Assembly: GCA_020721745.1 (NCBI GenBank)
Contig: DYMC01000001.1
Location: 1 to 34,480 of the forward strand
Length of the DNA: 34,480 nucleotides
DNA from: Lentisphaera sp.
GTDB lineage: Bacteria > Verrucomicrobiota > Lentisphaeria > Victivallales > GWF2-50-93
Direction of reading: 5' to 3'
In this document: in pieces, positions 930 to 19,350 of the stretch
Numbering within the stretch: the stretch's first letter is position 1
Layout: every line of letters begins with the position of its first letter
Program-made: the position numbers and the translations under genes
The notes under the pieces: generated by a model
What the model was told of the DNA's origin: nothing
The model's input: only the letters and a program-made list of their open reading frames with translations
Databases searched by the model: none

Positions 930-3029
930 ATGGCACGGACAACCAAGAAGAAACCAGCAGTTACTAATTCAAAAGCATTCAGCCTGGGTGAAGCAAAGTT
1001 AGCCTCATCTGGCCTCACCATCGAGGATGCCAATATCCTCGGCATGACGTTCCTTAGCGGCGAGCAGACGGCCGCCCTCCACCCAGCTTTCAAGCCGCTT
1101 TGCAGTCTGCGCCTCGACTACTTCGGCATCGATGGGGAACCTCTGGCTGACTGGCCTGGGTCCAAGCCGTTCTACCGGCTGCGGTATCTCGAGACAGGCG
1201 CTGACTTCGCCTCACTGGCTAACAAGAAACCGCTACGCTACGCGCAGGAGCCCAACACAGCTCCTGTTGCCTATTTCCCAGCCAACCAAGCATGGGCTGA
1301 GTTGGTTGAGGACGTCGATCGGCCACTGATCATCACAGAAGGCGAGCTGAAGTCGGCCAAGGCCTGCAAGGAGGGGTTCCCCACCATCGGTATCGGTGGA
1401 GTTTATAATTGGCGCAGCCGCAAGCTGGGTCTTGACTGGCTTCCCAGCCTCGAGCCTGTTCGGTGGGTGAAGCGCAACGTCTACATCTGCTTCGACTCGG
1501 ATTACACCACCAACCCCATGGTCTGCGCGGCTTTGCATGAGCTGGCTGAGGAGCTTCATCGCCGAGGTGCCTTCGCCCACATTGTCTCGCTGCCCGCCCT
1601 TGAGGGTCTGGAGAAGGTCGGCTTGGATGACTTCCTCGTGCACGCCGGGCCGACTGCCAACCAGATGTTCCGGAACCTGCTGGCTGAGGCTGAGCCCCTG
1701 GGGCTGACTCGTCCCCTCTGGGCGCTCAATCAGAAGTACGTCTACGTGCAGAACCCGGGTCTGATCATTGACCAGCAGACGGCCTTCAAGTCAACGCCCA
1801 ACGCTTTCACCGGCCACCTTGAAGCCACCCGCAACTACCAGGAGCGGAAGCTCAAGGCCGACGGTTCAGTGAGCTTCACTACCGTGCCAGCCGCCCAGGC
1901 TTGGCTCCGCTGGCCGTTGCGTACTGAGGTGGCTAAACTCACCTACCAACCAGGCCGCGACAAGTTCATCGATGGCCCGCTACCGATGTACAACATCTGG
2001 CCGGGTTGGGGTGTTGAGCCAGTTAAGGGCGACGTCAGCTTGTTCTTGCAGCTCGTTGACCACATCTTCACCGGTGCCGAACCTAAAGCCAAGGACTGGT
2101 TTCTCAAGTGGTGCGCGTACCCGCTGCAGCACCCAGGCGTCAAGCTGTTCAGCTCGGTCGTCATCCACGGCATCAAGCACGGCACTGGTAAGTCGCTGAT
2201 CGGCTACACCTTGGGTAGGATTTATGGCCAGAACTTCACCGAGATCAGCCAGATGGACCTGCACAGCAGCTTCAACGAGTGGGCTGAGGGCCGTCAGTTT
2301 GTTATGGGCGACGACGTGACCGGATCGAACAAGCGGCAAGATGCTGACTTCCTCAAGAAGCTCATCACCCAGCGCGATCTCCGTGTCAACGGTAAGTATG
2401 TCCCAACCTACGTGGTGCCTGACTGCATCAACTACTTCTTTACGGCCAACCACCCGGACTCGTTTTTCCTTGAAGACGATGACCGGCGGTTCTTCATCCA
2501 TGAGGTGCAGGTAGGGCCGATGGACGAAGCGTTCTACATGGAGTACGACCTCTGGTTGGACACCGGAGGATCGGCTGCCGTGTTCGACTACCTGCTGAAC
2601 CTGGACCTCGGCGACTTCAACCCAGCAGCCCCGGCCTTCAAGACCATGGCCAAGGAGCGCATGATCGCGAACATGCAGTCTGATCTGGCCGGCTGGGTGC
2701 GAAGCCTCATGGCGTCTCCTGACTTTGTTCTGCGTGTCGGCGACGTTGTGGTTGGCAAGGACCTGTTCACGTCGAAGGAGCTGCTGCAGTTCTACGACCC
2801 GACCGGCAAGACGGGTACGACCGCCAACGGTCTTGGTCGCGAGCTGGCTAGGGCCGGGGTTCGTCAAATCTGCGGTGGCAAGCCGGTGCGGCTTCACGAT
2901 GGATCGCAAGGCCGGTACTACGCGGTGCGCAACGCGGACCAGTGGTTGACGGCGACTCCGCAAGCTGCTGTGAAGCACCTCGATGACTGGATGAAGAAAC
3001 AAAGCGGCTCGAAAGGCTCAAAATATTGA
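930..3029 (+). CDS. Bifunctional DNA primase (Toprim) / SF3 helicase (P4/D5-like)
   Basis: 699 aa. Toprim-like segments LIITEGELKSAKA and VYICFDSDYTTNP in the N-terminal half. Walker A (HGIKHGTGKS), Walker B (FVMGDDV) and a P4-family C-terminal region (NYFFTANH, DDRRFF). Confidence 0.9.
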   Translation: MARTTKKKPAVTNSKAFSLGEAKLASSGLTIEDANILGMTFLSGEQTAALHPAFKPLCSLRLDYFGIDGEPLADWPGSKPFYRLRYLETGADFASLANKKPLRYAQEPNTAPVAYFPANQAWAELVEDVDRPLIITEGELKSAKACKEGFPTIGIGGVYNWRSRKLGLDWLPSLEPVRWVKRNVYICFDSDYTTNPMVCAALHELAEELHRRGAFAHIVSLPALEGLEKVGLDDFLVHAGPTANQMFRNLLAEAEPLGLTRPLWALNQKYVYVQNPGLIIDQQTAFKSTPNAFTGHLEATRNYQERKLKADGSVSFTTVPAAQAWLRWPLRTEVAKLTYQPGRDKFIDGPLPMYNIWPGWGVEPVKGDVSLFLQLVDHIFTGAEPKAKDWFLKWCAYPLQHPGVKLFSSVVIHGIKHGTGKSLIGYTLGRIYGQNFTEISQMDLHSSFNEWAEGRQFVMGDDVTGSNKRQDADFLKKLITQRDLRVNGKYVPTYVVPDCINYFFTANHPDSFFLEDDDRRFFIHEVQVGPMDEAFYMEYDLWLDTGGSAAVFDYLLNLDLGDFNPAAPAFKTMAKERMIANMQSDLAGWVRSLMASPDFVLRVGDVVVGKDLFTSKELLQFYDPTGKTGTTANGLGRELARAGVRQICGGKPVRLHDGSQGRYYAVRNADQWLTATPQAAVKHLDDWMKKQSGSKGSKY

Positions 3030-3122: not shown

Positions 3123-3329
3123 ATGAACGCAAAAGAAGTGAAAGCCGCCCTGGCCGACGAAGCTGTGCAGGCCGCGATCGAAAAGGAAGTGGCCAAGGCC
3201 GTCAAGGCCGAGACCAAGCGTTGCTTGGCAGTGGTCAAGGGCACCAAGCTGCCGGAAGACAAGGCCGCAGCCAAGGCTGTGAAAGAAGCGCTGAAGAGCG
3301 TGACCGCCGGCATCAAGGAAGCTGCGTAA
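3123..3329 (+). CDS. Hypothetical small Ala/Lys-rich helical protein (68 aa)
   Basis: ATG at 3123 preceded by ggag (~3109). The upstream extension to 3036 lacks an RBS. A hairpin follows the gene. Confidence 0.6.
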   Translation: MNAKEVKAALADEAVQAAIEKEVAKAVKAETKRCLAVVKGTKLPEDKAAAKAVKEALKSVTAGIKEAA

Positions 3330-3346
3330 GCAGCCTCTGCCCAGTG

Positions 3347-3385
3347 AGGCGCCAAGGAGCTCAGTTCAAAGGCGCCTTTCTTTTC
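3347..3385 (+). terminator. Candidate rho-independent terminator
   Basis: 7 bp stem aggcgcc (3347-3353) / ggcgcct (3371-3377) followed by a tttcttttc tract. The 17 nt loop is larger than usual. Confidence 0.45.
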
Positions 3386-3411
3386 ACCTCAATGTAAATA
3401 AGGAGTTTATC

Positions 3412-3627
3412 ATGCGTTGCTACCTCGTAACAGGCCCTGGTGCCAAGCGCTACGCTGCCACGAATGCCGACGCCCGCACTACCCGCAATGCACTGGTCGA
3501 GCAGCTGGGCTGCAAGAAGAAGGACGTCAAGATTGAGCAGACCGACATCCCGGTTGCCAAGGCCGACCTGCTCGAGTTCATCAACATCTTGTGCGCCGAA
3601 ACCGACGTGAAGGACGCGGAAGAATGA
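3412..3627 (+). CDS. Hypothetical protein (71 aa)
   Basis: Strong RBS aaggag 6 nt upstream of the ATG. ATGA overlap with the next gene. Confidence 0.7.
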   Translation: MRCYLVTGPGAKRYAATNADARTTRNALVEQLGCKKKDVKIEQTDIPVAKADLLEFINILCAETDVKDAEE

Positions 3628-3875
3628 GCCAAGTCCGTCTGAAGGACATGGTCAACCACCCGCCGCACTACGCTGAGACCGACAACGGGGTCGAGTGCAT
3701 CGACGCCATCCGCGCTGCCCTGGGCCGGGAGCAGTTCATCGGTTTTCTGCGTGGCCAGGTCATCAAGTACCAGTGGCGCCTGGGCAAGAAGGACAGCGCG
3801 GTCGAGGACAACCGCAAGGCCATCTGGTACGCCAACAAGCTTGACGAGGTGCTCAGCAATGAACTGGAGGCGTGA
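3624..3875 (+). CDS. DUF3310-type protein, similar to the C-terminal domain of T7 gp1.7 nucleotide kinase
   Basis: HPPHY...ECIDAI...GQVIKYQWRLGKK...NRKAIWYANKL matches the pattern I recall for the T7 gp1.7 C-terminus (PSHY...IEVI...GNILKYRLRAGKK...LAKADFY). ATGA coupling to the upstream gene. Confidence 0.7.
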   Translation: MSQVRLKDMVNHPPHYAETDNGVECIDAIRAALGREQFIGFLRGQVIKYQWRLGKKDSAVEDNRKAIWYANKLDEVLSNELEA

Positions 3876-3881
3876 TCATTT

Positions 3882-4163
3882 ATGAGCAAGGCGTTCACGG
3901 CTTTAGGCTTGCCTGAGACCGCGACGCCTGACGAAGTCAAGGCGAAGTGGCGCGAGCTGGTCATGGTGAACCACCCCGATCGCGGAGGGAATCCTTGCGA
4001 CTTCAACGAGATTCGCAAGGCCTACAAGATCGCCATGGAGGAAGCCTCGGCACCCAAGGCGTGCCCTCAGTGCAACGGAACCGGCAAGATCAAGCAAAGC
4101 CGTGGGTTCAGCTCGATCGACATGCCCTGCATGGCCTGCGGAGGAACCGGGCATGTTCAATAG
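3882..4163 (+). CDS. J-domain co-chaperone-like protein with one DnaJ-type zinc centre
   Basis: HPD tripeptide in a J-domain context (KAKWRELVMVNHPDRGG...IRKAYKI). Two CxxCxGxG motifs (CPQCNGTG, CMACGGTG). Confidence 0.85.
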   Translation: MSKAFTALGLPETATPDEVKAKWRELVMVNHPDRGGNPCDFNEIRKAYKIAMEEASAPKACPQCNGTGKIKQSRGFSSIDMPCMACGGTGHVQ

Positions 4164-4360: not shown

Positions 4361-4762
4361 ATGAGCGAAGTCGAGAACCCCAAGTACAAATTCCCCAAGG
4401 CCATGGGCGCTTGCGCCGACCGTCTGTACCAGCTGCGCCAAAAGCGACTGGAGATGCAGAAGGAGGTTGACAAGGTCGCGGCTGAGGAGTCTGCTCTCAA
4501 GGAGCACATCATCAACACGCTGCCTAAGTCTGAGGCCTCTGGCGTGGCTGGCAAGCTGGCCCGCGTGACGGTCGTGACCAAGCAGATCCCGCAGGTCAAG
4601 GACTGGGGCGCCTTCTACGAGTATGTCAAGAAGACCGGCCAGTTCGACCTCATGCAGCGTCGCATCACTGATGCTGCCATCAAGGAGCGTTGGGAAGCTG
4701 GCGAGGAGGTGCCGGGTGTCGAGCGCTTCAACGCCGTGTCCATCAGCATCAACAAGGTGTAG
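4361..4762 (+). CDS. Hypothetical protein with an N-terminal coiled coil (133 aa)
   Basis: RBS gaggag upstream of the ATG. No motif recognised. Confidence 0.7.
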   Translation: MSEVENPKYKFPKAMGACADRLYQLRQKRLEMQKEVDKVAAEESALKEHIINTLPKSEASGVAGKLARVTVVTKQIPQVKDWGAFYEYVKKTGQFDLMQRRITDAAIKERWEAGEEVPGVERFNAVSISINKV

Positions 4763-4846
4763 CTCAACCCAGCTGCTTGAGGGCGCGGCCTCAGGCGGTT
4801 GGTTCTTCAACCCCGCGAACGTGTAACTAGTTAGGAGTTCCTAATC

Positions 4847-5665
4847 ATGGCAACAACCAAAAAAGCAACGGCATCCGAATCCACCGCCCTAGTCAAGTGG
4901 GACGAAGAACTGGCCAAGCAGGCCGATATTGCGGCTGGCATGGAAGCCAACACTGGCGGCGGTCAGTTCTTCAGCCTGAAGGGCGGCGTCCTCTCCTGGC
5001 AAGACGCCCCGCTGCCGAACAACCAGATGGCAGTCGTCATCCTGGATAGCATCTTCGAGACCACCTACTACAAAGGCAAGTACGACCCCGACGCCCCTCA
5101 GAGCCCGACGGCATTCGCCTTCGGCCGCGATGAGAAGACGATGACCTGGCACGAGAACTCCGATCCTGAGTTCGCCGGCAAGCTGTGCATCGAGTCGGAC
5201 GTCTGCCAGTGGGGCTCGGCCGATATTGGTCGCGGCAAGGCAGCTCGTGAGACGCGCCGTCTGGCGATGATCCCGGCTGGCTCGTTCAATCAGGCTGGCA
5301 AATTCGAGCTGTTTGAGGAAGAGGAGCACTTCGCCTCGACTGCGATCGGCTTCATGAAGCTGCCCGTCACTTCGGTCAAGGGCTACGCCAGCTTTGTCAA
5401 GCAGGTGGCTGGTGCTCTGCGTCGGCCACCCTTCGGCATCGTCACCAAGGTCAAGGTCGTTCCCGATCCGAAGACCCAGTTCAAGGTCGTCTTCGAGCCG
5501 ATCATGAACATCCCTGACGAGCTGATGGGCGTCATCATGCAGCGTCACGAGGAGGCGAAGGCCACCATCGAATTCCCGTACCAGCCAGCTGACGAGGAGA
5601 AGGCACCTCCTCCGAAGCGCGGCAGCCGCGCAGCAGCTATGCCTGCTCGCGGTCGCAAGTACTGA
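4847..5665 (+). CDS. Hypothetical protein (272 aa); candidate ssDNA-binding or annealing protein by position only
   Basis: RBS aggag upstream of the ATG. It sits just before the DNA polymerase module and is followed by a strong terminator. The function is not supported by any motif. Confidence 0.65.
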   Translation: MATTKKATASESTALVKWDEELAKQADIAAGMEANTGGGQFFSLKGGVLSWQDAPLPNNQMAVVILDSIFETTYYKGKYDPDAPQSPTAFAFGRDEKTMTWHENSDPEFAGKLCIESDVCQWGSADIGRGKAARETRRLAMIPAGSFNQAGKFELFEEEEHFASTAIGFMKLPVTSVKGYASFVKQVAGALRRPPFGIVTKVKVVPDPKTQFKVVFEPIMNIPDELMGVIMQRHEEAKATIEFPYQPADEEKAPPPKRGSRAAAMPARGRKY

Positions 5666-5683
5666 TTGCAGTAGCCGCCTTTG

Positions 5684-5733
5684 CCCGGCAGGTCTGACGG
5701 TAACCTCCTCCCGCCAGACCTGCCGGGTCTTTT
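5684..5733 (+). terminator. Rho-independent terminator
   Basis: 13 bp perfect stem cccggcaggtctg (5684-5696) / cagacctgccggg (5715-5727) followed by tctttt. Confidence 0.8.
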
Positions 5734-5751
5734 GACACAGGAGCAACAGCT

Positions 5752-5964
5752 ATGAAGAAGAAGCCGGTGAACAACCCAGCCTTGCAGTCTTGGCTAGCAC
5801 TGAACGATGCGCTTCGTGAGGCTGGTGAACCGGTCTGCGAGGCGTTGTTGAAAGAGGAGCTGGAGGGGCGCAGGCGCAAGCAGTTCATCAAGCGGATTCA
5901 CAGCAGATTCAACAAAGTCCGCGCCGATCGTGAGCGCGCCGAGCTCGAGGCCAAGGCATCATGA
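5752..5964 (+). CDS. Hypothetical protein (70 aa, basic/helical)
   Basis: RBS caggag upstream. ATGA overlap with the DNA polymerase start. Confidence 0.65.
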   Translation: MKKKPVNNPALQSWLALNDALREAGEPVCEALLKEELEGRRRKQFIKRIHSRFNKVRADRERAELEAKAS

Positions 5965-7874
5965 AGCAGCCTAAACCAGTGTGTTTGGATTTTGAAACAT
6001 TCGGTATTGAGGACAGGCCCAAGTACCCGCCGATGCCCGTTGGTGTTTCGATCAAGTACCCAGGCAAGAAGGCCAGGTACTACGCCTTCGGCCATTCTGA
6101 GGGCAACAACTGCTGTTGGTCTGAAGCAGCCGCTGAGCTGGCTAAGGCCTACGCGCACAAGGACGGCGTCCTGTTCCATAACGGCAAGTTCGACGTGGAC
6201 GTGGCTGACGTCCATTTTGGTCTGGCTGTCCCCAGCTGGGAACGCGTCCATGATACCCTCTTTCTGCTGTTCCTCGACGACCCCCACCAGATTGAGCTGG
6301 GCCTGAAGCCTGCTGCGGCCCGCCTGCTCAACATGCCGGCTGAGGAGCGCGATGCTGTGGGTGACTGGCTGATTGAGCACCAGCCGGTCCCAGGCGTCAA
6401 GATCAGCAAGTCGAGGTCATCTGAGCACTACTTCGGCCGCTACATCGCCTACGCACCTGGCGGCCTTGTGGGCACGTACGCCAACGGCGACGTTGACAGG
6501 ACTGAGGCTATCTTCAACCTGCTTTGGAAGAGGACGGTTGAGCGTGGCATGTTGGCCGCCTACGACCGCGAGCGCCAGCTCATGCCCATCTTGCTGGAGA
6601 TGGAGCGCCAAGGTCTGCCCGTGGACCTCAAGCGGCTGCGCAACGATGTGGCCATGTACAACGAGTGGCGCGACAAGATCAACCTCTGGATCATCAAGAC
6701 CCTGAAGGCCAGCCCCGACATCAACCTCGATTCTGGACAGCAGCTCGTCGATGCCATGGTGCTGTCTGGCAAAGCTGATCCCGATCTGGTGCCGCGGACC
6801 CCGACTGGCAAGTTCCAGACGAACAAGGAGGCTCTGCTGCAAGGGGTCACTGACAAGGTCCTGCTGGCCATCCTCAAGTACCGCACCCAGCTGAACACCT
6901 GCCTGAACACCTTCATGCAACCCTGGCTGGCGACGGCCGAGGCCTCAGATGGTCTGATCTTCACGACCTGGAACCAGACCAAGACCCCGTCAGGCGACAC
7001 CAACGTCGGCACGCGGACTGGTCGCCTGTCATCGACGCCGAACTTCCAGAACATCCCGAAGGAGTTCCAGCCGATCTTCCACCACGAGGCGCCCGACAAG
7101 AAGCTGCCCAAGTGCCCGTTCAAGGACCTGCCTCCGCTGCCCAAGGTGCGGAGCTACATCACGCCCTTCCCCGGGCACGTGATGATCGACCGCGACTACT
7201 CGCAGCAGGAGCCTCGGATCCTCGCCCACTTCGATGGCGGCGCCCTTATGGAGAAGTACCTCGAGAACCCGTGGATTGACTTCCACGACTACGCCAAGGC
7301 GGAGCTCGAAAAGATGGGCAAGTTCTACGACCGCAAGCCGGTGAAGAACACGAACCTGGGTCTGATTTACGGCATGGGCGTGGGCAAGCTGGCTGAGCGC
7401 AACGGCATGACGGTCGAGGAGTCAGCTGAGCTGAAGAAGGCCATCTTGCAGCTGTACCCGGGGCTGCGTGACATGTACAAGGACATGAAGGTCCGCGCTA
7501 AGTTCAAGCAGCCTATCCGCACCTGGGGTGGGCGTGAGTACTACTGCGAGGAACCCAAGCTGATCAACGGGCGCATCCAGGAGTTTGACTACAAGCTCGT
7601 GAACGTGCTCATTCAAGGCTCGGCTGCCGACTGCACCAAAGCCGCGATCATCAGCTACCACGCCGCCAAGCACCCTGAGGCGAAGATCATCCTCAGCGTT
7701 CATGACCAAATCACAGTCAGCGTGCCGAAGAAGATCATGAAGACTGAGATGGAGGTGCTGCGCCAAGCCATGGAAGGGGTGGAGTTCGACGTCCCTATCC
7801 TGAGCGAAGGCTCAATTTCATCAACCAACTGGGACGAACTCCAGGATTACGACAAACGAGGAAAGATCCTATGA
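5961..7874 (+). CDS. Family A DNA polymerase with a 3'-5' exonuclease domain (T7-like, no 5'-3' exonuclease)
   Basis: Exo motifs LDFETFG, HNGKFD and YANGDVD. Pol motif A (DYSQQEPRILAH), motif B (RKPVKNTNLGLIYGMG) and motif C (SVHDQI). Confidence 0.95.
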   Translation: MKQPKPVCLDFETFGIEDRPKYPPMPVGVSIKYPGKKARYYAFGHSEGNNCCWSEAAAELAKAYAHKDGVLFHNGKFDVDVADVHFGLAVPSWERVHDTLFLLFLDDPHQIELGLKPAAARLLNMPAEERDAVGDWLIEHQPVPGVKISKSRSSEHYFGRYIAYAPGGLVGTYANGDVDRTEAIFNLLWKRTVERGMLAAYDRERQLMPILLEMERQGLPVDLKRLRNDVAMYNEWRDKINLWIIKTLKASPDINLDSGQQLVDAMVLSGKADPDLVPRTPTGKFQTNKEALLQGVTDKVLLAILKYRTQLNTCLNTFMQPWLATAEASDGLIFTTWNQTKTPSGDTNVGTRTGRLSSTPNFQNIPKEFQPIFHHEAPDKKLPKCPFKDLPPLPKVRSYITPFPGHVMIDRDYSQQEPRILAHFDGGALMEKYLENPWIDFHDYAKAELEKMGKFYDRKPVKNTNLGLIYGMGVGKLAERNGMTVEESAELKKAILQLYPGLRDMYKDMKVRAKFKQPIRTWGGREYYCEEPKLINGRIQEFDYKLVNVLIQGSAADCTKAAIISYHAAKHPEAKIILSVHDQITVSVPKKIMKTEMEVLRQAMEGVEFDVPILSEGSISSTNWDELQDYDKRGKIL

Positions 7875-8605
7875 ACAAGAAAACCATCCCGATCAAGCAG
7901 GTCACCAGCTGGTCGTTCAGCCGCTACAGCACGTACAAGCAATGCCCGTTGAAGCTGAAACTCAGCGCGATCGATCATATACGCGAGCCGGGCAATGAGG
8001 CCATGGTGCGCGGCGACGCCATCCACAAGTTGGCTGAGAAGTACATCAAGGGTGAGGGCCGCTCGTTGCCGCCTGAACTCAAGCTGTTTGCTGACGAGTT
8101 CAAGAAGCTGCGGGCCCAGTACAAGAAGAAAATCAACGGCATGGTGGTCGAAGACAACTGGGCTTTCACAAAAGATTGGTCTGAAACACAGTGGGATAAT
8201 TGGGCAGAGTGCGTTGTGCGCATCAAGATTGATTGCGCCCACCATCAGGACGACGAGACCCTCATCATCACGGACTGGAAGACGGGCAAGTTCCGCCCTG
8301 AGATGAATGAGGAGTACGTCGAGCAGCTGGAGCTCTACGCGCTGGCCGCCCTGCTTCTTCACGAGCACATTCAGCAGGTCAAGCCACGCCTCGCCTACTT
8401 GGACCTCGGCATCACATACCCTGAGGCTGGCGCTGAGCTGGTGTTCACGCGCACTGACATCCCCAAGCTCAAGAAGCTGTGGAAGAAGCGGACCAAGGCC
8501 ATGCTGAATGATAAGCAGTTCGCGCCCCGCCCGAACGACAAGTGCCGATTCTGTTTTTACCGCAACAGCAACAAGGCTGCCGGTGGCGGCCAGTGCAAAT
8601 ACTGA
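7871..8605 (+). CDS. PD-(D/E)XK nuclease, Cas4/RecB-like, with a Cys cluster
   Basis: N-terminal Cys (YKQCPLK), DWKTGK and QLELYALA core motifs, and a C-terminal CRFC...C cluster typical of 4-Cys Cas4-like exonucleases. Confidence 0.85.
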   Translation: MNKKTIPIKQVTSWSFSRYSTYKQCPLKLKLSAIDHIREPGNEAMVRGDAIHKLAEKYIKGEGRSLPPELKLFADEFKKLRAQYKKKINGMVVEDNWAFTKDWSETQWDNWAECVVRIKIDCAHHQDDETLIITDWKTGKFRPEMNEEYVEQLELYALAALLLHEHIQQVKPRLAYLDLGITYPEAGAELVFTRTDIPKLKKLWKKRTKAMLNDKQFAPRPNDKCRFCFYRNSNKAAGGGQCKY

Positions 8606-8615
8606 GGAGATGAAC

Positions 8616-9146
8616 ATGGAACACGTGATGATTGACCTTGAGACCCTGGGCCGCCGCGCTGGCTGCGCCATCCTGTCCATTGGGGCAGTGGCCTTCGACG
8701 CCAAGGCCAAGGAGCTGGGTCCTGAGCTGTACACGGTCGTGCGCCTGGACAGCTGCGAGAAGGCAGGCCTGCACATCGACCCGGACACGATCGCTTGGTG
8801 GGAGAAGCAAAACCCCGAGGCGCAGAAGGTCCTCAAGCAGGCACGAGCTGCCAGTGGCAACAAGGTGCTGCCCGAGGCGCTGGAGGAGCTAACCAAGTAC
8901 CTCAGCCAGTTCGACCTCAAGAAGGTCAAGGTCTGGGGCAACGGATCGGACTTCGACAACGCCATCCTCACGGCTTGTTACGCCTCCGTCGAGAAGCCAC
9001 TGCCGTGGGAGTTCTGGAACAACCGCTGCTACCGCACGTTGAAGAGCCTGAAGCCGTCGATCAAGATGCAGCGCCAAGGCACCTGCCACAACGCGTTGGA
9101 CGATGCCAAGTCTCAGGCCTTCCACGCAATCGAGTTGCTGGGGTGA
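8616..9146 (+). CDS. DEDDh 3'-5' exonuclease (DnaQ / Rv2179c-like)
   Basis: MIDLETLG (Exo I), GNGSDFD (Exo II) and HNALDDA (Exo III, DEDDh). gaggag RBS at 8604-8609. The in-frame ATG at 8610 is an alternative start. Confidence 0.85.
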   Translation: MEHVMIDLETLGRRAGCAILSIGAVAFDAKAKELGPELYTVVRLDSCEKAGLHIDPDTIAWWEKQNPEAQKVLKQARAASGNKVLPEALEELTKYLSQFDLKKVKVWGNGSDFDNAILTACYASVEKPLPWEFWNNRCYRTLKSLKPSIKMQRQGTCHNALDDAKSQAFHAIELLG

Positions 9147-12544: not shown

Positions 12545-12647
12545 ATAACCAGCTGTTCAATCTTGAACGGTGTACGGCCTCTGAAAAAAACTCACTCCAC
12601 GCCTATAGAGTATTGGGTGTGGGCAACACACGAAAGAGGTAATCATC

Positions 12648-13460
12648 ATGGCCAAATCCAAAGAAGTTTCACGCGACTCCCGCGACTACGACACCACCCA
12701 GCTACGTGAGGCAGGCCACGGCCGCACGCTTCACAGAGATTATTCCGCACATTTTTTCCGCTGGAGCTTTGCCCGCCGCTTCATCTCGGCCAAGGACAAC
12801 GTCCTCGAGGTCGGCTGCGGCGAGGACAAGCCGCTCAGCAAGATCCTGACTGGCGGAGCTGCTGCTCACGTTGGCCACTACACCGGCGTGGATCTGAACA
12901 AGCTCAAGCCGTCTAACAACCAGCGTCTGGAGTTCCACGGCGAGTTCAACTTCGTCGAGCGCTACAAGGAGTTGCTCAAGAAGCGTCCCGAGGGTTGGGA
13001 TGTCGTCGTTAACTACGAGGTCATCGAACACATGAAGGTCGAGCACGGTGCCAACCTGCTCAAGGCCATGTTCGCCTGCACCAAGCCGGGCGGTGTCCTG
13101 CTGCTCTCGACCCCGGTCTACGATGGCAAGCGCCACGCGGCCAACCACATCCACGAGTACACGGTGCCTGAGCTGCAGAGCTACATCGAGAAGGCTGGCT
13201 ACGTGGTCGAGCGCCGTTTCGGCACGTTCATGGACATCAAGCACATCGGCAAGGCCGACCCCACCGGCTGCAGCAAGGCGGCTGTGCTGGAGATTCGCAA
13301 GGCTTTGGAGCAGTACTTTGACAACGACGCCATCAGCAACATCTTTGGCCCGCTGTACGAGGACCATGCTCGCAACAACCTCTGGGTCTGCCGCAAAGCC
13401 GCTGACGGCAAGCCGGTCAAGCCTGCTCGCAAGACCACCACGAAAGGAGCGCCGTTCTGA
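12648..13460 (+). CDS. Class I SAM-dependent methyltransferase (small-molecule/UbiG-like type, not a recognisable DNA MTase)
   Basis: Motif I VLEVGCGEDKP, an acidic post-I residue (GVDLN), NYEVIEHM, and a KPGGVLLLSTP motif. No DPPY or PCQ DNA-MTase motifs. Confidence 0.85.
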   Translation: MAKSKEVSRDSRDYDTTQLREAGHGRTLHRDYSAHFFRWSFARRFISAKDNVLEVGCGEDKPLSKILTGGAAAHVGHYTGVDLNKLKPSNNQRLEFHGEFNFVERYKELLKKRPEGWDVVVNYEVIEHMKVEHGANLLKAMFACTKPGGVLLLSTPVYDGKRHAANHIHEYTVPELQSYIEKAGYVVERRFGTFMDIKHIGKADPTGCSKAAVLEIRKALEQYFDNDAISNIFGPLYEDHARNNLWVCRKAADGKPVKPARKTTTKGAPF

Positions 13461-13858
13461 TGATTGGCAATGTCGCTGAGTTCCACGAAAAGTTCGGCCT
13501 CCCTATGGGGGCTGTTGATCAACTCATGAACGACCCGGCAGCTCAGGAGTTCCGGGTCAAGTTCTTGCAAGAGGAGCTAGACGAGCTCAAGGAGGCGCTC
13601 GCCGAGGGCAACCGCGTGAAGGTGTTCGACGCTCTGCTGGATCTGGTCTACGTAGCCTACGGCACGGCGCTGTTCGCTGGCATCGATGCAGCTCAGTGGC
13701 ACGCTGGCATGGACGCCGTCCACTCGTGCAACATGGCCAAGGTCCGTGTGGCCAAGGCTGAGGACAGCAAGCGGGGCAGCGCCTTCGATGTCAAGAAGCC
13801 GGAAGGCTGGACTGGCCCCGAGGCGCGCCTGGAGGAGATTCTGTCATGGACCAAGTGA
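13460..13858 (+). CDS. MazG/HisE-like all-alpha NTP pyrophosphohydrolase (candidate dCTPase/dUTPase)
   Basis: LQEELDELKEAL (EExxE) and FDALLDLVYVAYG metal-binding helices. 132 aa. TGATG overlap with the methyltransferase gene. Confidence 0.8.
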   Translation: MIGNVAEFHEKFGLPMGAVDQLMNDPAAQEFRVKFLQEELDELKEALAEGNRVKVFDALLDLVYVAYGTALFAGIDAAQWHAGMDAVHSCNMAKVRVAKAEDSKRGSAFDVKKPEGWTGPEARLEEILSWTK

Positions 13859-14757
13859 GCTGCAAGCTGACGATCTTCGAGGGCCCGGACGGTGGCGGCA
13901 AATCGACTGCCGCCCAGTCCTACGCCCAGATGACCGGCGCCAAGTACGTGCACTTCACCTCGCTGCCTCGCGTCGGCAAGAACCTCGGCCGCATGTACGT
14001 CGAGGCCATGATGCCGGCGCTGCTTGGCTACCAGGACGTGGTCTTCGATCGCTGCTGGCTGAGTGAGATGCCGTACGGCGTCGCGTTCCGTGAGGGCAAG
14101 GATCGCTTGACGTCGGCCAGCCGCCGGATGCTCGAGCGGCTGGCCATGCGGTGCGGCGCTGTTGTGGTCAAGTGCCAACCCAGCTGGGAGACCGTCAAGG
14201 CCAACTACCTCAGCCGCAAGCACATCGAGATGCTGGACAACGAGTACCAACTCAAGACGGTCTACGACCTCTATGCTGAGCAGCCGACGGACTTGCCCTT
14301 GGTGGACTACGACTACACGAGGGGCGACCTGTTCGAGGTCAACAAGGTGGCTCTGCTGATCGATGGCCTGCGTATGCGCCAACACCCGCTTGGTCTGGCC
14401 TCGGCTGGCAACTGGGACGCCCGGATCGTGCTGATCGGCGAGTCGTTTGCTGAGCGCGAGGACAACGATCCCTGGTACCAGTGGCCCTTCGCCTCGTTCA
14501 GTGACGAGGGTTGCAGCCAGTGGTTGGCCGACCAACTGGACCTGATCGAGGTTGGCGAGGACGACATCCTCTGGCTGAACTCCGATCAGGACCTGTCCGT
14601 GCTGTATGACCTGGCGCCTGAGCGCATCATTGCCATGGGCACGGAGGCCTACCAGCAGCTGTACAAGCTCAAGATCAAAGCCGCTTCGGTCCAGCATCCC
14701 CAGACCTGGAAGCGCTTCAACTTCAAGCAGCGCTACCCGTTGCTTGACCTCATCTAA
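13846..14757 (+). CDS. Fusion: thymidylate-kinase-like P-loop dNMP kinase (N-terminal) + degenerate uracil-DNA-glycosylase-superfamily domain (C-terminal)
   Basis: The N-terminus has LTIFEGPDGGGKST (P-loop) and FDRCWLSEMPYG (TMK DR motif). The C-terminus (~aa 175-303) has IVLIGESFAERED...WPFAS...GCSQWL, resembling the family-4 UDG motif A (GEAPG..E...G.PF.G..G..L), and SVQHPQTW, resembling motif B (HPS). Confidence 0.75.
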   Translation: MDQVSCKLTIFEGPDGGGKSTAAQSYAQMTGAKYVHFTSLPRVGKNLGRMYVEAMMPALLGYQDVVFDRCWLSEMPYGVAFREGKDRLTSASRRMLERLAMRCGAVVVKCQPSWETVKANYLSRKHIEMLDNEYQLKTVYDLYAEQPTDLPLVDYDYTRGDLFEVNKVALLIDGLRMRQHPLGLASAGNWDARIVLIGESFAEREDNDPWYQWPFASFSDEGCSQWLADQLDLIEVGEDDILWLNSDQDLSVLYDLAPERIIAMGTEAYQQLYKLKIKAASVQHPQTWKRFNFKQRYPLLDLI

Positions 14758-14767
14758 GGAGAACAAC

Positions 14768-15553
14768 ATGCAAGACTTTTCACGCACTTGGCTTGAGGCC
14801 GTCAACGACATCTTGACCAACGGTGACCTCGTGGCACCGCGCGGCAAGATGACCCGTGAGATTCCGCAGCGCACCATCGTGGTGAACATGCGGAAACCCG
14901 TGCTCCGCGTGCCCGACCGCAGCCTGAGCTACAAGTTCATGGCGGCCGAGGCCTTCTGGATCCTGACTGGTGACGACCGGGTCGAGACGATCGCCCCGTA
15001 CAACAGCCGCATCAAGGACTTCAGCGACGACGGCGAGCGCTTTTTCGGCGCCTACGGCCCCAAGATCGTGGCCCAGCTGCCCTACATCATCGAGAAGCTG
15101 CGGGCCGATGAAAACAGCCGCCAAGCTGGCCTGACGATCTGGCGCGAGTGCCCGCCCCAGACGAAGGACGTGCCCTGCACGGTGGCCATCTTCTTCAACC
15201 TCCGTGGCGGCAAGCTCAATGCCCACGTGTTCATGCGGTCGAGCGACGTCTGGCTGGGCGTTCCCTACGACGTCTTCAACTTCAGCATGCTGAGCCACCT
15301 CGTCTGCGGCCTGCTGAATGGGCACCGACTGGCCGCTGATGCCGTGTCGCCTGGCAGGCTGTTCCTGACGGCGGCCAGTAGCCACCTGTACGAGACCAAC
15401 TGGGAGGACGCGAAGCTGTGTCTGGCCAGCCAGGTGCTCGATCAGGTTGAGACGCCCAAGCTGCTGTGGAACGACCCGGCCTACCTGATGTCGGAGCTCA
15501 AGATGATCCGTGACAGTCGGCCGGGTGACGCCTGCCGTTGGTGGGAGCTGTAA
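14768..15553 (+). CDS. ThyA-fold pyrimidine C5 hydroxymethylase/methylase, predicted dCMP-specific (T4 gp42-like)
   Basis: aaggag RBS. Catalytic Cys in VPCT (codon at 15176-15178). FMRSSDVWLGVPYDVFN aligns with E. coli ThyA YQRSCDVFLGLPFNIAS. Asp (15269-15271) replaces the dUMP-specifying Asn. SSHLY matches DTHLY. Confidence 0.8.
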   Translation: MQDFSRTWLEAVNDILTNGDLVAPRGKMTREIPQRTIVVNMRKPVLRVPDRSLSYKFMAAEAFWILTGDDRVETIAPYNSRIKDFSDDGERFFGAYGPKIVAQLPYIIEKLRADENSRQAGLTIWRECPPQTKDVPCTVAIFFNLRGGKLNAHVFMRSSDVWLGVPYDVFNFSMLSHLVCGLLNGHRLAADAVSPGRLFLTAASSHLYETNWEDAKLCLASQVLDQVETPKLLWNDPAYLMSELKMIRDSRPGDACRWWEL

Positions 15554-15554
15554 C

Positions 15555-16022
15555 ATGAGACCCAGCCGCGACGAATGGGCCCTGAAACTGGCCCTGCTGA
15601 CTGCCCAACGAACGACCTGCCGCCGCCGAGCAGTTGGCTGCGTGCTGCTGAACGCTCGTGGCCACGTGCTGGCCACCGGGTACAACGGCGTCGCGGCTGG
15701 CCTGCCTCACTGCAACCACCATGACCCGTACTCCGAGACGGGGTTCCCCCACGCCTGCTCAGGAGCCAACTCACCGAGCGGGACGAACCTCGACGGCTGC
15801 CAGGCGATCCACGCTGAGCAGAACGCTATGCTCCAGTGCAAGGACGTCTACAGCATCCACACGTGCTACGTGACGACCAGCCCGTGCATGACCTGCGTCA
15901 AGCTGCTGCTCAACACCAGCTGCGAGAGGATCGTCTTTGTGGAGGAGTACCCGCACTCGGCGGCTCGGGAGCTCTGGGCAGGCACCGGACGGGCCTGGGA
16001 GCAACTTCTTGTGGAGATTTGA
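15555..16022 (+). CDS. dCMP deaminase (zinc-dependent cytidine/deoxycytidylate deaminase fold)
   Basis: HAEQNA and SPCMTCVKLL zinc-binding motifs. ATG lies 1 nt after the stop of the upstream gene. Confidence 0.9.
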   Translation: MRPSRDEWALKLALLTAQRTTCRRRAVGCVLLNARGHVLATGYNGVAAGLPHCNHHDPYSETGFPHACSGANSPSGTNLDGCQAIHAEQNAMLQCKDVYSIHTCYVTTSPCMTCVKLLLNTSCERIVFVEEYPHSAARELWAGTGRAWEQLLVEI

Positions 16023-16060
16023 TCCAACTTGACCTTCAGGAATGACCCGAGGGATCACGA

Positions 16061-16104
16061 AATGGCTTAGCCCATAACTTCCTATGGTCTAAGCCATTCT
16101 TTTC
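16061..16104. terminator. Hairpin terminator at the convergence point of the two arms
   Basis: aatggcttag (16061-16070) pairs with ctaagccatt (16089-16098). The inner ccata/tatgg pairing extends the stem. cttttc follows on the + strand, and the upstream gaaa gives a short T tract on the - strand. Confidence 0.75.
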
Positions 16105-16936: not shown

Positions 16937-17187
16937 CTTTTGTCCGCCTTCTTGTCAATCTTGTCTTCAATTTTGTCGAGCTTGGCAAACAGTGTGGTCA
17001 TATGGGACATAAATTCATCCTTCTTGACGTAGTCGCCAGCCACCAAGATCTCAATCTCAGAGACCTTCTTCGTGAGCTCCTTGTCAGTAACCTGCAGGTC
17101 CTTGACAGATTGCCAAACTGCACTGAGCAAGAACCCGATGAGAGTTCCGAGGCCACCTAGCAGCCAATTTATAAGTGTTTGGTCCAT
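16933..17187 (-). CDS. Membrane protein with one N-terminal TM helix and a coiled-coil C-terminus (holin/antiholin or i-spanin-like)
   Basis: Start MDQTLINWLLGGLGTLIGFLLSAVW with a ggggag RBS. The C-terminus is charged and helical. ATGA overlap with the endolysin gene. Confidence 0.6.
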   Translation of the reverse strand: MDQTLINWLLGGLGTLIGFLLSAVWQSVKDLQVTDKELTKKVSEIEILVAGDYVKKDEFMSHMTTLFAKLDKIEDKIDKKADKR

Positions 17188-17305
17188 TCCCAGTCTCCCC
17201 TTCTTTATCACGCGTTAGTTCTTGAGTTACTCCGCACCAGTTGCATTCCTCGCCGTCTTCAACGTCAAGCAAGCACTTTTCGGAATTACAGTAGTGAGTC
17301 CACAT
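17084..17305 (-). CDS. Small Cys-rich hypothetical protein (possible zinc ribbon) overlapping the next gene
   Basis: Strong RBS aaggag 6 nt before the ATG at 17305. The N-terminus has C-x4-C-x9-C-x2-C (YCNSEKC...ECNWC). The last ~100 nt overlap the gene at 16933-17187 in another frame. Confidence 0.4.
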   Translation of the reverse strand: MWTHYCNSEKCLLDVEDGEECNWCGVTQELTRDKEGETGNGPNTYKLAARWPRNSHRVLAQCSLAICQGPAGY

Positions 17306-17328
17306 TATTAGCTCCTTGTTATCGATTC

Positions 17329-19350
17329 TTACCAGGTAATTGCATCTTTATTGTAGCGCAGCCACGCGCGGCAGATTCTGTCCTTGTTACCAGCATCTGT
17401 AGTGAATCGCGCTATGCTACCATCTATGTAAGCCAAAGTCATGGGCAACGATTCGCCGCTGTTACCTTTGTAAAACGCGGCAGCAGCCATCACGTAGCCG
17501 CCCCCATTCGCTGTGCCATGTGAAATATCAAAATTGCCCGATGCATCAACAACCCCACCATATTCGCATTCGACATACACGTCTCCGTGCCGTGTTAGTG
17601 GTGAGTTTACGACCTTATTCATGCAGTTGAAGAACTTGTTACTATCCAGAACGTCATTGGCAAACCAGCCGACCAGGTTCTGCAAATAGATGGCATTGCC
17701 ACAGGATACGAAATTATTTTCACTGATCGTAACTTCCGTGGATGTTGCGCCAACCACAACAGCCCCCTGATCGGCAGCTTGCAAGCCAAGAGTCAGAGTG
17801 TTTCCTGTTACCCGCACTCCTGTTGAGTTCCGAATAAGTAAGCGGCGTCCAAAGGCCGTGTTGTTGGCAATAAGACCGTAGCTGCTAGCAAAGTCAGCCC
17901 AGCTTCCGCCAGCTTCAGCATAAGTACCGGCGTTCACGGCGTTGCCGATGACCTGAACATTCTCAATGGCACCAACTACGATGTCTGTGCCAGCGTTATC
18001 GTGGAGAGTGTTGCTGCCGATAATCACATATTTGCATCCACCAATTGAGATGCCAATCCCATCGCCAACCGACCCGTCATGATCTGTACTGCCACAGTTA
18101 TAGATTGTGTTACCAACGATCGTGACATAGCCCGTCCAGCCATCATCGCTGCCATCATATCGTATCCCAGAGCGTTTACACTTAGCCACAGTGTTGCTAA
18201 CTATCTTAACGTTCCGGGGCCCTTTTCTTCCTTTATATGCAAACCATCCCATGTTGATGCCGTCGCCGCAAGCAACAATTTCATTACTGGAGATTAGTAA
18301 CGTGTGATCCTGATTAGCGTCTGTACCTTCCGGCCCTGCACCTACCCCAAGATCGCATTTATAAATGTAGTTGCCAACGATGCAGCCGCGCGCATCGTTA
18401 TTAAATGCGATGCCACCATCACCGCTATTTTTTGCCGTGTTGCCAGTTACAATAAAGTAGCCGTTGTTGAAGTTGTAAATGTCACCACCGCATTGTTCGG
18501 TATAGTTCCCACTGACGTAAGCCTCACCGTAATTTAACTGTATCGAGTGCATGCGTTGCCCAAGGTTTGTAGGGATGTTCAAGAATCGGTTGTTTGTGAT
18601 ACTCAACCCAGACATCGTCCCAGATGTGGTCGCAGAAGATATGCAGGCAGCTTCACCCATTGGAGAACCTTCTGTTACGAGTCCTGAAGCATCAAATGTT
18701 ATGCCGTGGATGGTGCTGTTTGCCGAACCGTCTGGGATGTAAATTTGATAATATGACCCAGATTTGGCTTTCAAAGTCCCACCATCTCCAACAAGACCTA
18801 CGCCAGATGGTAATGTGACAGTCCCGGCCGTGATAGTTTTACCTGACAAAGATAACCACTTGTGTCCAGAATTCAGCGCCGCTTGCAGATATGCAGTCTC
18901 ATCAGAACCATCGCCCTTAACACCAAAATCACACACACTGACAACATCAGCATTTTTCTCATGCTGCGTTCTGGCAACGCCACCAGGCAATAGTGACTTG
19001 ACTCCAACCAGGGCGTCGCCAAGAGTTTGGTTACTAGTATTTGATAAATCAGAGAACAGGGGAGGAACTGATGGCGCATAGAACACTACACGCTTGTTTT
19101 TGTCGGCGACGATAATGGAAAAATCCATTACAGCTGTAAACACTCTAGCCGGAGTTCCGTTGCGCACAATGTAGCCATTTGACGTACGAAGAGGTTGTGC
19201 TGCAGGCAGTGTACCAGCCTCATCCCAGAAGACGGCGATGGGGTTGGTCTCAGGGTTCTGGCCGGCAGCGCCAATGTAGATATTGCCGTCGTCAAGAGGA
19301 CCTCCCTCAAGACCAAAAAACTGCTGAAATGGCGACTGAACTTGAAACAT
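17329..19350 (-). CDS. Tailspike / tail fibre with a pectate-lyase-type right-handed beta-helix (probable polysaccharide depolymerase)
   Basis: 673 aa. VSVCDFGVKGDGSDETAYLQAAL is the Pectate_lyase_3 signature. Repetitive Gly/Asn/Ile-rich beta-helix coils follow. The N-terminus (~80 aa) resembles conserved tailspike head-binding domains. Confidence 0.85.
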   Translation of the reverse strand: MFQVQSPFQQFFGLEGGPLDDGNIYIGAAGQNPETNPIAVFWDEAGTLPAAQPLRTSNGYIVRNGTPARVFTAVMDFSIIVADKNKRVVFYAPSVPPLFSDLSNTSNQTLGDALVGVKSLLPGGVARTQHEKNADVVSVCDFGVKGDGSDETAYLQAALNSGHKWLSLSGKTITAGTVTLPSGVGLVGDGGTLKAKSGSYYQIYIPDGSANSTIHGITFDASGLVTEGSPMGEAACISSATTSGTMSGLSITNNRFLNIPTNLGQRMHSIQLNYGEAYVSGNYTEQCGGDIYNFNNGYFIVTGNTAKNSGDGGIAFNNDARGCIVGNYIYKCDLGVGAGPEGTDANQDHTLLISSNEIVACGDGINMGWFAYKGRKGPRNVKIVSNTVAKCKRSGIRYDGSDDGWTGYVTIVGNTIYNCGSTDHDGSVGDGIGISIGGCKYVIIGSNTLHDNAGTDIVVGAIENVQVIGNAVNAGTYAEAGGSWADFASSYGLIANNTAFGRRLLIRNSTGVRVTGNTLTLGLQAADQGAVVVGATSTEVTISENNFVSCGNAIYLQNLVGWFANDVLDSNKFFNCMNKVVNSPLTRHGDVYVECEYGGVVDASGNFDISHGTANGGGYVMAAAAFYKGNSGESLPMTLAYIDGSIARFTTDAGNKDRICRAWLRYNKDAITW

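Follow-up and report, generated by a model that had tools for sequence, protein, structure and literature searches.

A phage gene joining a thymidylate-kinase-like domain to a compact uracil-DNA-glycosylase-superfamily domain within a predicted cytosine-modification module

Why would a phage place a nucleotide kinase and a domain resembling uracil-DNA glycosylases (UDGs) in one polypeptide, and does the second domain still have the make-up of a working one? The question is raised by a gene at 13846-14757 (+) of contig DYMC01000001.1 (assembly GCA_020721745.1, deposited as Lentisphaera sp.). The whole 34,480-nt stretch that was analysed, here called the window, is a nearly complete phage genome. 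A sequence-only reading had described the product of this gene as a thymidylate kinase (TMK)-like kinase joined to a UDG-superfamily domain, and the kinase matches, the UDG structure matches and the profile alignment reported below all bear this pairing out. We refer to the C-terminal domain as mini-UDG.

The fusion of the two domains is real and widespread. The gene is a single uninterrupted open reading frame (ORF) of 303 amino acids (aa) plus stop, and its product carries the motifs FEGPDGGGKST, FDRCW, GESFA and HPQ at residues 11-21, 67-71, 198-202 and 284-286, respectively. The first 13 nt of the ORF are shared with the end of the MazG gene upstream, and the gene downstream begins 11 nt past its stop, a spacing that is typical of an operon layout. 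With the full-length protein as query, 555 database proteins were retrieved at E<=0.001, and the best 120 of these matches are nearly all full-length, with identities down to 58%. When the C-terminal domain alone was used as query, the word-index prefilter left a single protein; an exhaustive profile search was used in its place and returned 997 representatives of 50%-identity clusters at E<=0.001, of which 509 reach E<=1e-10. Among the best 150 matches of this profile, 119 are at least 280 aa long and have the domain at about residues 170-310. The architecture first proposed from one sequence is thus found again in the 555 proteins and in the cultured phages AXL3 (gp29, 46% identity) and PW916 (47%) and in the metagenomic phage MW202621 (54%). 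Those of the shorter C-domain matches that were inspected are fragments, which start partway through the kinase or where their contig begins or ends; among them P0163, a candidate for a standalone mini-UDG, was rejected as a truncated fusion, since it starts at base 15 of its 1.8-kb contig. The stop-free ORF and the many full-length homologues rule out an assembly or frameshift artefact, so that the two halves are one gene, as had been supposed.

Whole-protein structure searches with Foldseek were swamped by the kinase domain, and the C-terminal domain was therefore modelled separately. The AlphaFold2 model of residues 170-303 has a predicted local distance difference test score (pLDDT) of 82, and its top 37 Foldseek matches in the PDB all belong to the UDG superfamily (E about 1e-5, query template-modelling score about 0.6); the matches that follow have E>0.02. 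The 37 comprise family-4 enzymes (Thermotoga 1l9g/1vk2, Thermus 1ui0, Sulfurisphaera 4zby), UdgX and one Bradyrhizobium UNG (BdiUNG, 5gn2). Searched against a viral structure library, the domain retrieves its own family ahead of all others; next in rank are phage COG1573 UDGs and UDG domains from phage polymerases. Structure prediction and structural search thereby recover the UDG fold that had been proposed from motif spacing.

No direct Pfam, PHROG or PDB-sequence match was obtained for the C-terminal domain, including in a hidden Markov model (HMM) search of its profile against the PDB sequences. The decisive comparison was made between profiles of 120 C-domains and 120 family-4 UDGs, which hhalign aligned over 105-121 columns with a probability of 96.3% and E 1.6e-9; an earlier comparison with a four-sequence family-4 profile had given a weak local match (67%) that was off register. 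In the larger alignment, VLIGE corresponds to the beta1 strand and the GE of GEAPG, P214-F215 to P53-F54 of the Thermus enzyme, GCSxWL to AGxLL, LWLN245 to YITN80, IAMG to IVPLG, and H284-P-Q-T-W-K-R290 to H155-P-A-Y-L-L-R161, which is the very register that the sequence-only reading had guessed. By this alignment, mini-UDG has lost two surface segments of family 4, namely the ITKVRG hairpin and the stretch with cysteines that follows beta2, and the N-terminal cluster cysteines are absent. We consider homology of the C-terminal domain to the UDG superfamily to be, at the very least, highly probable.

In order to see what such a reduced domain has kept, conservation was scored in 120 representatives with mutual identity of at most about 50%, to which all conservation figures in this text refer. 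In motif A, G198 is conserved in 98% of the representatives, and position 199 is acidic in 93% (Glu 57%, Asp 37%). P214 and F215 reach 99% and 97%, N245 is present in 116/120 (97%), and in motif B the values are 98% for H284, 100% for P285, 81% for Q286 and 94% for R290, which stands at His+6, the same spacing as R184 of UdgX. Motif A thus keeps the Gly and the acid, and has F/Y-x (GESFA) where family 4 has the Pro-Gly of GE(A/G)PG; motif B keeps His, Pro and Arg, with Gln (81%) standing where family 4 has Ser, and (W/H)-K where it has Leu-Leu. Studies of family 4 and UdgX assign water activation to the motif-A Glu, uracil binding to the Asn and His, and contact with the DNA backbone to the motif-B Arg (PMC10359453).

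This pattern points to strong purifying selection on the pocket residues of mini-UDG. The domain had been called degenerate, a description that did not hold up: the acid, Phe215, Asn245, His284-Pro285 and Arg290 are conserved at 93-100%, and the domain is reduced instead. We regard it as a minimal UDG with an apparently intact pocket. Since C223 (81%) is the only conserved cysteine, a 4Fe-4S cluster is not expected. On these sequence grounds we place mini-UDG in a new cluster-less subfamily beside family 4 and not inside it, because the cluster is missing and the literal motifs depart from those of family 4 (GESFA, HPQxWKR). It measures about 125 aa and lacks the iron-sulfur cluster, and we know of no smaller natural domain of UDG fold whose pocket appears intact.

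Mini-UDG has the same four-stranded alpha/beta fold as the family-4 UDGs (1ui0, 1l9g/1vk2 = TM0511, 4zby) and UdgX, and the following elements succeed one another in it as they do there, at matching distances: the G-E acid, P-F, the Asn that closes beta2, L-G, and H-P...R at +6. It differs from family 4 in its length (about 125 aa versus about 190-200), in lacking the four-Cys cluster, in its motif A (GE/D-x-F-x versus GEAPG) and motif B (HPQxWKR versus HPSxLLR), in the longer loop from motif A to PF and in being fused to a kinase. Fusion to another enzyme is known for family-4 UDG domains from phages, where they are joined to PolA, often in phages with modified pyrimidines (PMC10201439; bioRxiv 10.1101/2025.03.26.645540). 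Such UDG-PolA proteins (SPO1, SP-10, SP-15, YerA41, N4-like; 9qhs) likewise carry a family-4-type UDG on a phage replication or precursor protein, and in modified-pyrimidine phages they set a precedent for a UDG on the replication and precursor machinery. In those proteins a polymerase follows an N-terminal UDG; in the present one a much smaller UDG follows a deoxynucleoside monophosphate (dNMP) kinase at the C-terminal end. No Pfam UDG match was obtained for the window's PolA (5961-7874).

We found no description of a kinase-UDG fusion in the literature searched, in agreement with the sequence-only reading, which knew of none; the cluster-less 125-aa subfamily and its tie to a modified-cytosine module were not found there either. 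Neither the fusion architecture nor the subfamily is captured by Pfam, PHROG or NCBIfam models. Both folds are already known, as are UDG domains fused to phage replication proteins; the fusion is a variation on known folds, and a new principle is not required on present evidence.

Mini-UDG also occurs on its own. RsoM2USA_394, a 152-aa protein of the Ralstonia jumbo phage RsoM2USA (4950-5408 of the retrieved locus), is 34% identical to the domain; PF, N and HPQ-WKRF are retained in it, and its motif A reads Ala-Glu where Gly-Glu is usual. An RNA ligase gene and two genes of unknown function that are paralogous to each other (PHROG 3054) lie beside it; nucleotide-metabolism genes and a split kinase gene are both absent from its neighbours. 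Because this standalone copy has no kinase nearby, we posit that mini-UDG can act independently of the kinase.

The N-terminal domain had been called TMK-like over residues 1-165, and its PHROG 761, YorR and Foldseek matches agree. Residues 7-166 match PHROG 761 'thymidylate kinase' (E 7e-16), and the kinase family profile searched against the PDB finds YorR of the SPbeta prophage (2axp, E 5e-4). The AlphaFold2 model of the whole fusion protein (pLDDT 90.4; predicted template-modelling score, pTM, 0.89) has YorR 3kb2 as its best Foldseek match (E 6.6e-7), followed by thymidylate kinases and deoxynucleoside kinases. In the P-loop, G13, D15, G18 and K19 are conserved at 97-99% and S/T20 at 99%. 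D68 (120/120) and R69 (119/120) form what we take, from knowledge of TMKs, to be the NMP-binding DR motif, with Cys (DRC) and not an aromatic as its third residue. R87 and R98 are invariant, and R124, in the segment aligned to the LID region of YorR, is conserved at 91%.

YorR (2axp/3kb2), the best match of the fusion kinase in both structure and sequence, and the short phage TMK-like kinases share with it the P-loop FEGxDGxGK(S/T)T, the DR motif and a length of ~165 aa; the fusion kinase differs from YorR and TMK in staying below the thymidylate-kinase thresholds and in its extra C-terminal domain. It scores 14.4 bits with Pfam Thymidylate_kin (PF02223), under the cut-off of 27, and 20.8 bits with NCBIfam TIGR00041, under the threshold of 83. 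Because neither threshold is reached, the domain is, as judged from sequence and model, best described as a dNMP kinase of the TMK/YorR fold class and not as an orthologue of cellular Tmk. We hold a nucleotide-kinase role of this domain to be likely. T4 gp1, which phosphorylates 5-hydroxymethyl-dCMP (5-hm-dCMP; dCMP, deoxycytidine monophosphate) in T4, is a dNMP kinase of the same expected role to which the fusion kinase is unrelated in sequence. The kinase domain alone is found as 156-180-aa proteins beside MazG-like/hydrolase genes in unrelated phages, among them Lebethron and SunnyD, and YorR-like kinases adjoin ThyA homologues in other modified-cytosine phages (PMC13326640). No second dNMP-kinase candidate was found among the scanned ORFs, which comprise most of the replication module and 10 structural/lysis ORFs.

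A different kind of kinase was also considered. A base within DNA can be the substrate of a P-loop kinase, as the 5-hydroxymethyluracil DNA kinases (5-HMUDKs) show (PMC8989533), and their member M6 gp54 resembles the fusion in being a P-loop kinase near a ThyA-type hydroxymethylase gene in a modified-DNA phage. Membership of the fusion in that family was rejected: it has no PF18748 match even at E<=1 (control M6 gp54, 7.7e-18), and BLASTP to M6 gp54 finds only the P-loop.

The substrates on which the kinase might act are suggested by its neighbours. The fusion gene stands third in the five-gene order methyltransferase, MazG-type pyrophosphohydrolase, kinase-UDG, ThyA homologue, dCMP deaminase (Table 1), an arrangement shared by AXL3, PW916 and metagenomic contigs, those of distant members among them. 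The ThyA homologue is nearest to the CMP hydroxymethylase MilA (E 9e-16). It has Asp at the positions of N177 and L143 of the E. coli enzyme and retains D169. Under published diagnostic rules, Asp at N177 stands for cytosine specificity and Asp at L143 for hydroxymethyl over methyl (PMC13326640), and the protein is predicted to be a dCMP 5-hydroxymethylase. A 5-hydroxy-dCMP synthase was considered and rejected, as the D169 position holds Asp and not Asn under the same rules (PMC13326640). AXL3 DNA resists 35 restriction enzymes with G/C in their sites; the only enzymes that cleave it are those recognising AATT or TTAA (PMC7504290). The combination of deaminase, thymidylate synthase (N177D), PRA-PH and PolA has been found to mark modified-cytosine contigs (bioRxiv 10.1101/2024.12.05.627091); in that study the kinase-UDG gene was most likely overlooked for want of a Pfam match. 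The pathway appears to act on cytosine and not on uracil.

Table 1. Coordinates of the kinase-UDG fusion, its domains and motifs, and the neighbouring genes of the module in the window.
Feature	Position	Strand	Basis
Class I S-adenosylmethionine methyltransferase (Methyltransf_23; Hen1/UbiG-like)	12648..13460	+	Pfam/NCBIfam; conserved position
MazG/PRA-PH-type NTP pyrophosphohydrolase, probable dCTP/dUTPase	13460..13858	+	Pfam, PHROG
Kinase/mini-UDG fusion, complete ORF	13846..14757	+	Translation; full-length in relatives
Short P-loop dNMP-kinase domain (TMK/YorR-like), residues 1-165	13846..14340	+	PHROG 761, YorR 2axp, Foldseek 3kb2
P-loop GPDGGGKST, residues 13-21	13882..13908	+	Conservation in 120 representatives
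D68-R69, presumed 'DR' NMP-binding motif of TMK-type kinases	14047..14052	+	Conservation; role from TMK knowledge
Linker helix between the domains, residues 166-176	14341..14373	+	Helix 165-175 in AlphaFold2 model
Compact UDG-superfamily domain without 4Fe-4S cysteines, nearest family 4, residues 177-303	14374..14754	+	Foldseek, hhalign, weak Pfam/NCBIfam matches
Motif A equivalent GESFA, residues 198-202, aligned to family-4 GEAPG	14437..14451	+	hhalign; conservation
P214-F215, aligned to Pro53-Phe54 of Thermus UDGA (base-stacking Phe)	14485..14490	+	hhalign; conservation
N245, end of strand beta2, aligned to uracil-recognising Asn (Tth N80 / UdgX N91)	14578..14580	+	hhalign; PMC10359453
Motif B equivalent HPQTWKR, residues 284-290, aligned to HP(S/A)xLLR	14695..14715	+	hhalign; PMC10359453
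ThyA homologue, predicted dCMP 5-hydroxymethylase	14768..15553	+	Pfam; diagnostic residues (PMC13326640)
dCMP-deaminase-family protein; open from GTG 15510, likely start ATG 15555	15555..16022	+	Pfam, PHROG

Based on these data we tentatively propose that the fusion joins a kinase for modified dCMP to a mini-UDG that flips, and probably also excises, uracil-type bases in a cytosine-replacing phage, a reading to which, as a whole, we give somewhat less than an even chance. From homology and context, the MazG-type enzyme would return dCTP (and dUTP) to the monophosphate, and the ThyA homologue would turn dCMP into 5-hm-dCMP, or possibly 5-methyl-dCMP. The N-terminal domain would then phosphorylate the modified dCMP to the diphosphate, as gp1 does in T4; host kinases would not be expected to phosphorylate it efficiently, and the host nucleoside diphosphate kinase would complete the triphosphate. 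Because mini-UDG keeps the acid that activates water, the Phe for stacking, the Asn that reads the base, the His for the leaving group and the Arg that binds the backbone, flipping of a uracil-type base from DNA is its most likely action, probably followed by excision. A need for uracil excision is plausible since the pathway is rich in deaminase and in dUMP/dUTP intermediates, and excision would keep dU, or deaminated modified C, out of the phage DNA. One polypeptide would thereby link precursor synthesis with DNA surveillance, possibly at the replication fork.

The sequence-only reading had offered two explanations, and the proposal takes up one part of the first, a kinase for the modified dNMP tethered to a base-flipping or DNA-binding module. 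That part is now better supported by the dNMP-kinase hallmarks, the standalone relatives beside MazG, the want of another kinase candidate in the scanned ORFs and a ThyA homologue predicted to make 5-hm-dCMP. The accompanying suggestion that the module may be inactive as a glycosylase is not favoured, the family-4 catalytic constellation being so highly conserved. Whether mini-UDG is a real glycosylase is nevertheless, in our estimate, almost evenly balanced, with doubt slightly ahead.

Several observations weigh against the proposal. Direct matches to UDG HMMs are marginal, the Pfam UDG model matching 4/34 members and the NCBIfam type-4 UDG model covering residues 186-207. Motif A is without its Pro-Gly, and residue 199 is Asp in 37% of the representatives and non-acidic in 7%. 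Some ~40 residues of a normal family-4 enzyme are missing, among them the beta-hairpin and the cluster region, and these deletions could impair DNA binding. The C-terminal domain of this phage is very acidic (net charge -9, isoelectric point 4.5; family mean -1.7), a property that ranges from -9 to +8 across the family and is uninformative on DNA binding. The call between methyl and hydroxymethyl for the product of the ThyA homologue is a prediction from a correlative rule. Finally, no result obtained here accounts for the joining of a glycosylase to a kinase.

The UDG-fold domain could instead be a non-catalytic tether to DNA or the replisome, or a base reader, whose binding to DNA, perhaps with a base flipped, would serve only to hold the modified-nucleotide kinase at the fork and so to channel precursors. 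We consider this unlikely, if worth keeping in mind. The N4-like UDG-PolAs have lost catalytic residues and have been proposed to act as processivity modules (PMC10201439), mini-UDG is strongly reduced, has lost the Pro-Gly of motif A and tolerates Asp or Gln at position 199, and the two domains may be fixed to each other, as they are modelled confidently in one body (pTM 0.89). A tether would, however, not need the acid, Phe, Asn, His and Arg to be conserved at 93-100% over about 120 diverged lineages, and the existence of a standalone mini-UDG without a kinase speaks against it as well.

The UDG pocket might alternatively bind not DNA but a free pyrimidine mononucleotide, and the domain, for example by sensing dUMP, dTMP or dCMP, might contribute specificity, allosteric control or channelling to the kinase or to the ThyA and deaminase partners. 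UDG pockets can hold dUMP, and the UdgX-dUMP complex 6ajp is among the Foldseek matches; all neighbouring genes act on nucleotides; and the motif A loop has a pLDDT of 71-83 in the full-length model versus about 50 in the isolated domain, so that it may pack on the kinase. This difference may, however, only reflect alignment depth (52 versus 34 sequences). We know of no UDG-superfamily member that works on free nucleotides, which counts against such a module, as do the standalone RsoM2USA homologue with its lack of nucleotide-metabolism neighbours and the conserved motif-B Arg at His+6, which contacts the DNA backbone in UdgX (PMC10359453). Altogether we judge this explanation improbable.

About equally improbable is the idea that mini-UDG represents a new specificity class policing base composition in fully cytosine-substituted phages. 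Such an enzyme would excise unmodified C, or 5-hydroxymethyluracil or T opposite G as products of deamination, and would so destroy host DNA or proofread the phage genome, with the fused kinase supplying the modified replacement nucleotide at the same site; in a radical variant, both domains would cooperate on the flipped base in DNA.

The second explanation of the sequence-only reading, in which the UDG fold flips out a 5-hydroxymethylpyrimidine and the P-loop domain phosphorylates its hydroxymethyl group in DNA, can draw on the hydroxymethyl pyrimidine that the ThyA homologue is predicted to make and on the apparently rigid joining of a base-flipping fold to a kinase, but it was not borne out and is very improbable, given that the 5-HMUDK model is silent, that the TMK-type DR motif is kept and the domain groups with YorR, TMKs and deoxynucleoside kinases, that no aGPT-Pplase/AADT, pyridoxal-phosphate enzyme or glycosyltransferase of the kind that would act downstream is found in the window or the related loci examined, that the pathway appears to be of the cytosine and not the uracil type, and that the phage would be left without the 5-hm-dCMP kinase it needs.

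Phages that fully replace cytosine are sources of enzymes for epigenetic sequencing and of restriction-resistant DNA, and earlier mining for such enzymes has used the neighbourhood of deaminase, ThyA(N177D) and PRA-PH. The gene in between stayed invisible because no Pfam family matched it; it now emerges as a common fusion with about 1000 clusters at 50% identity. It supplies a candidate 5-(hydroxy)methyl-dCMP kinase for these phages, mini-UDG could serve as a scaffold for base flipping or base excision, and the fusion as a whole offers a testable link between modified-nucleotide synthesis and the surveillance of DNA base content. The annotations of AXL3 gp29, currently named only "thymidylate kinase", of the PW916 fusion gene, currently unannotated, and of the PW916 ThyA homologue can be corrected. 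The latter is named 'deoxyuridylate hydroxymethyltransferase' and its AXL3 counterpart 'thymidylate synthase'; both names are probably wrong about the substrate. This observation on ThyA homologues refers to the gene in the window and to positions 3280-4098 of a related locus.

Two slots of the module vary among relatives. In a 59%-identical relative, a dUTPase_2-family protein (5648-6007 of that locus) takes the pyrophosphatase slot, and the exchange of PRA-PH/MazG for dUTPase_2 looks like the non-orthologous replacement of one function. The methyltransferase keeps its place in most relatives, and a C5 cytosine DNA methylase (PF00145) is found in its slot on the contig of one divergent member (4428-5477). 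The methyltransferase of the window shows weak Hen1/UbiG similarity, of the small-molecule/ribose O-methyltransferase type and not that of a classical DNA methyltransferase. Its gene is the only part of 12600-16100 (a 3.5-kb query) with a nucleotide-level match to known phages, at 76-78% to PW916 and MW202621, where it is named 'capping protein'. It is conceivable that the enzyme O-methylates the 5-hydroxymethyl group or a nucleotide sugar.

In the remainder of the window, the replication module on the plus strand encodes a primase-helicase-like protein, a family-A polymerase, a PD-(D/E)XK nuclease, a 3'-5' exonuclease and an SNF2 helicase, and the minus strand carries lysis and structural genes. 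The 699-aa protein at 930-3029 (+) combines a DUF3854 (Toprim-like) with a DUF5906 (helicase-type) domain and is likely the phage primase-helicase. The DNA_pol_A match of the polymerase begins only at residue 249; the 3'-5' exonuclease is encoded apart from it, by a Rv2179c-like gene at 8508-9146. A 94-aa ORF at 3591-3875 (+) matches many PHROGs named 'nucleotide kinase', in each case only over a ~70-aa C-terminal segment of the profile. Its length is insufficient for a kinase; more probably it is a small accessory domain whose name has passed to those PHROGs. Finally, the region 17001-19000 has a G+C content of 0.47-0.49 versus about 0.58 elsewhere, with negative GC skew, and covers a 673-aa tail/tail-spike-like gene (ORF 17329-19350, minus strand), which suggests a recently exchanged receptor-binding module.

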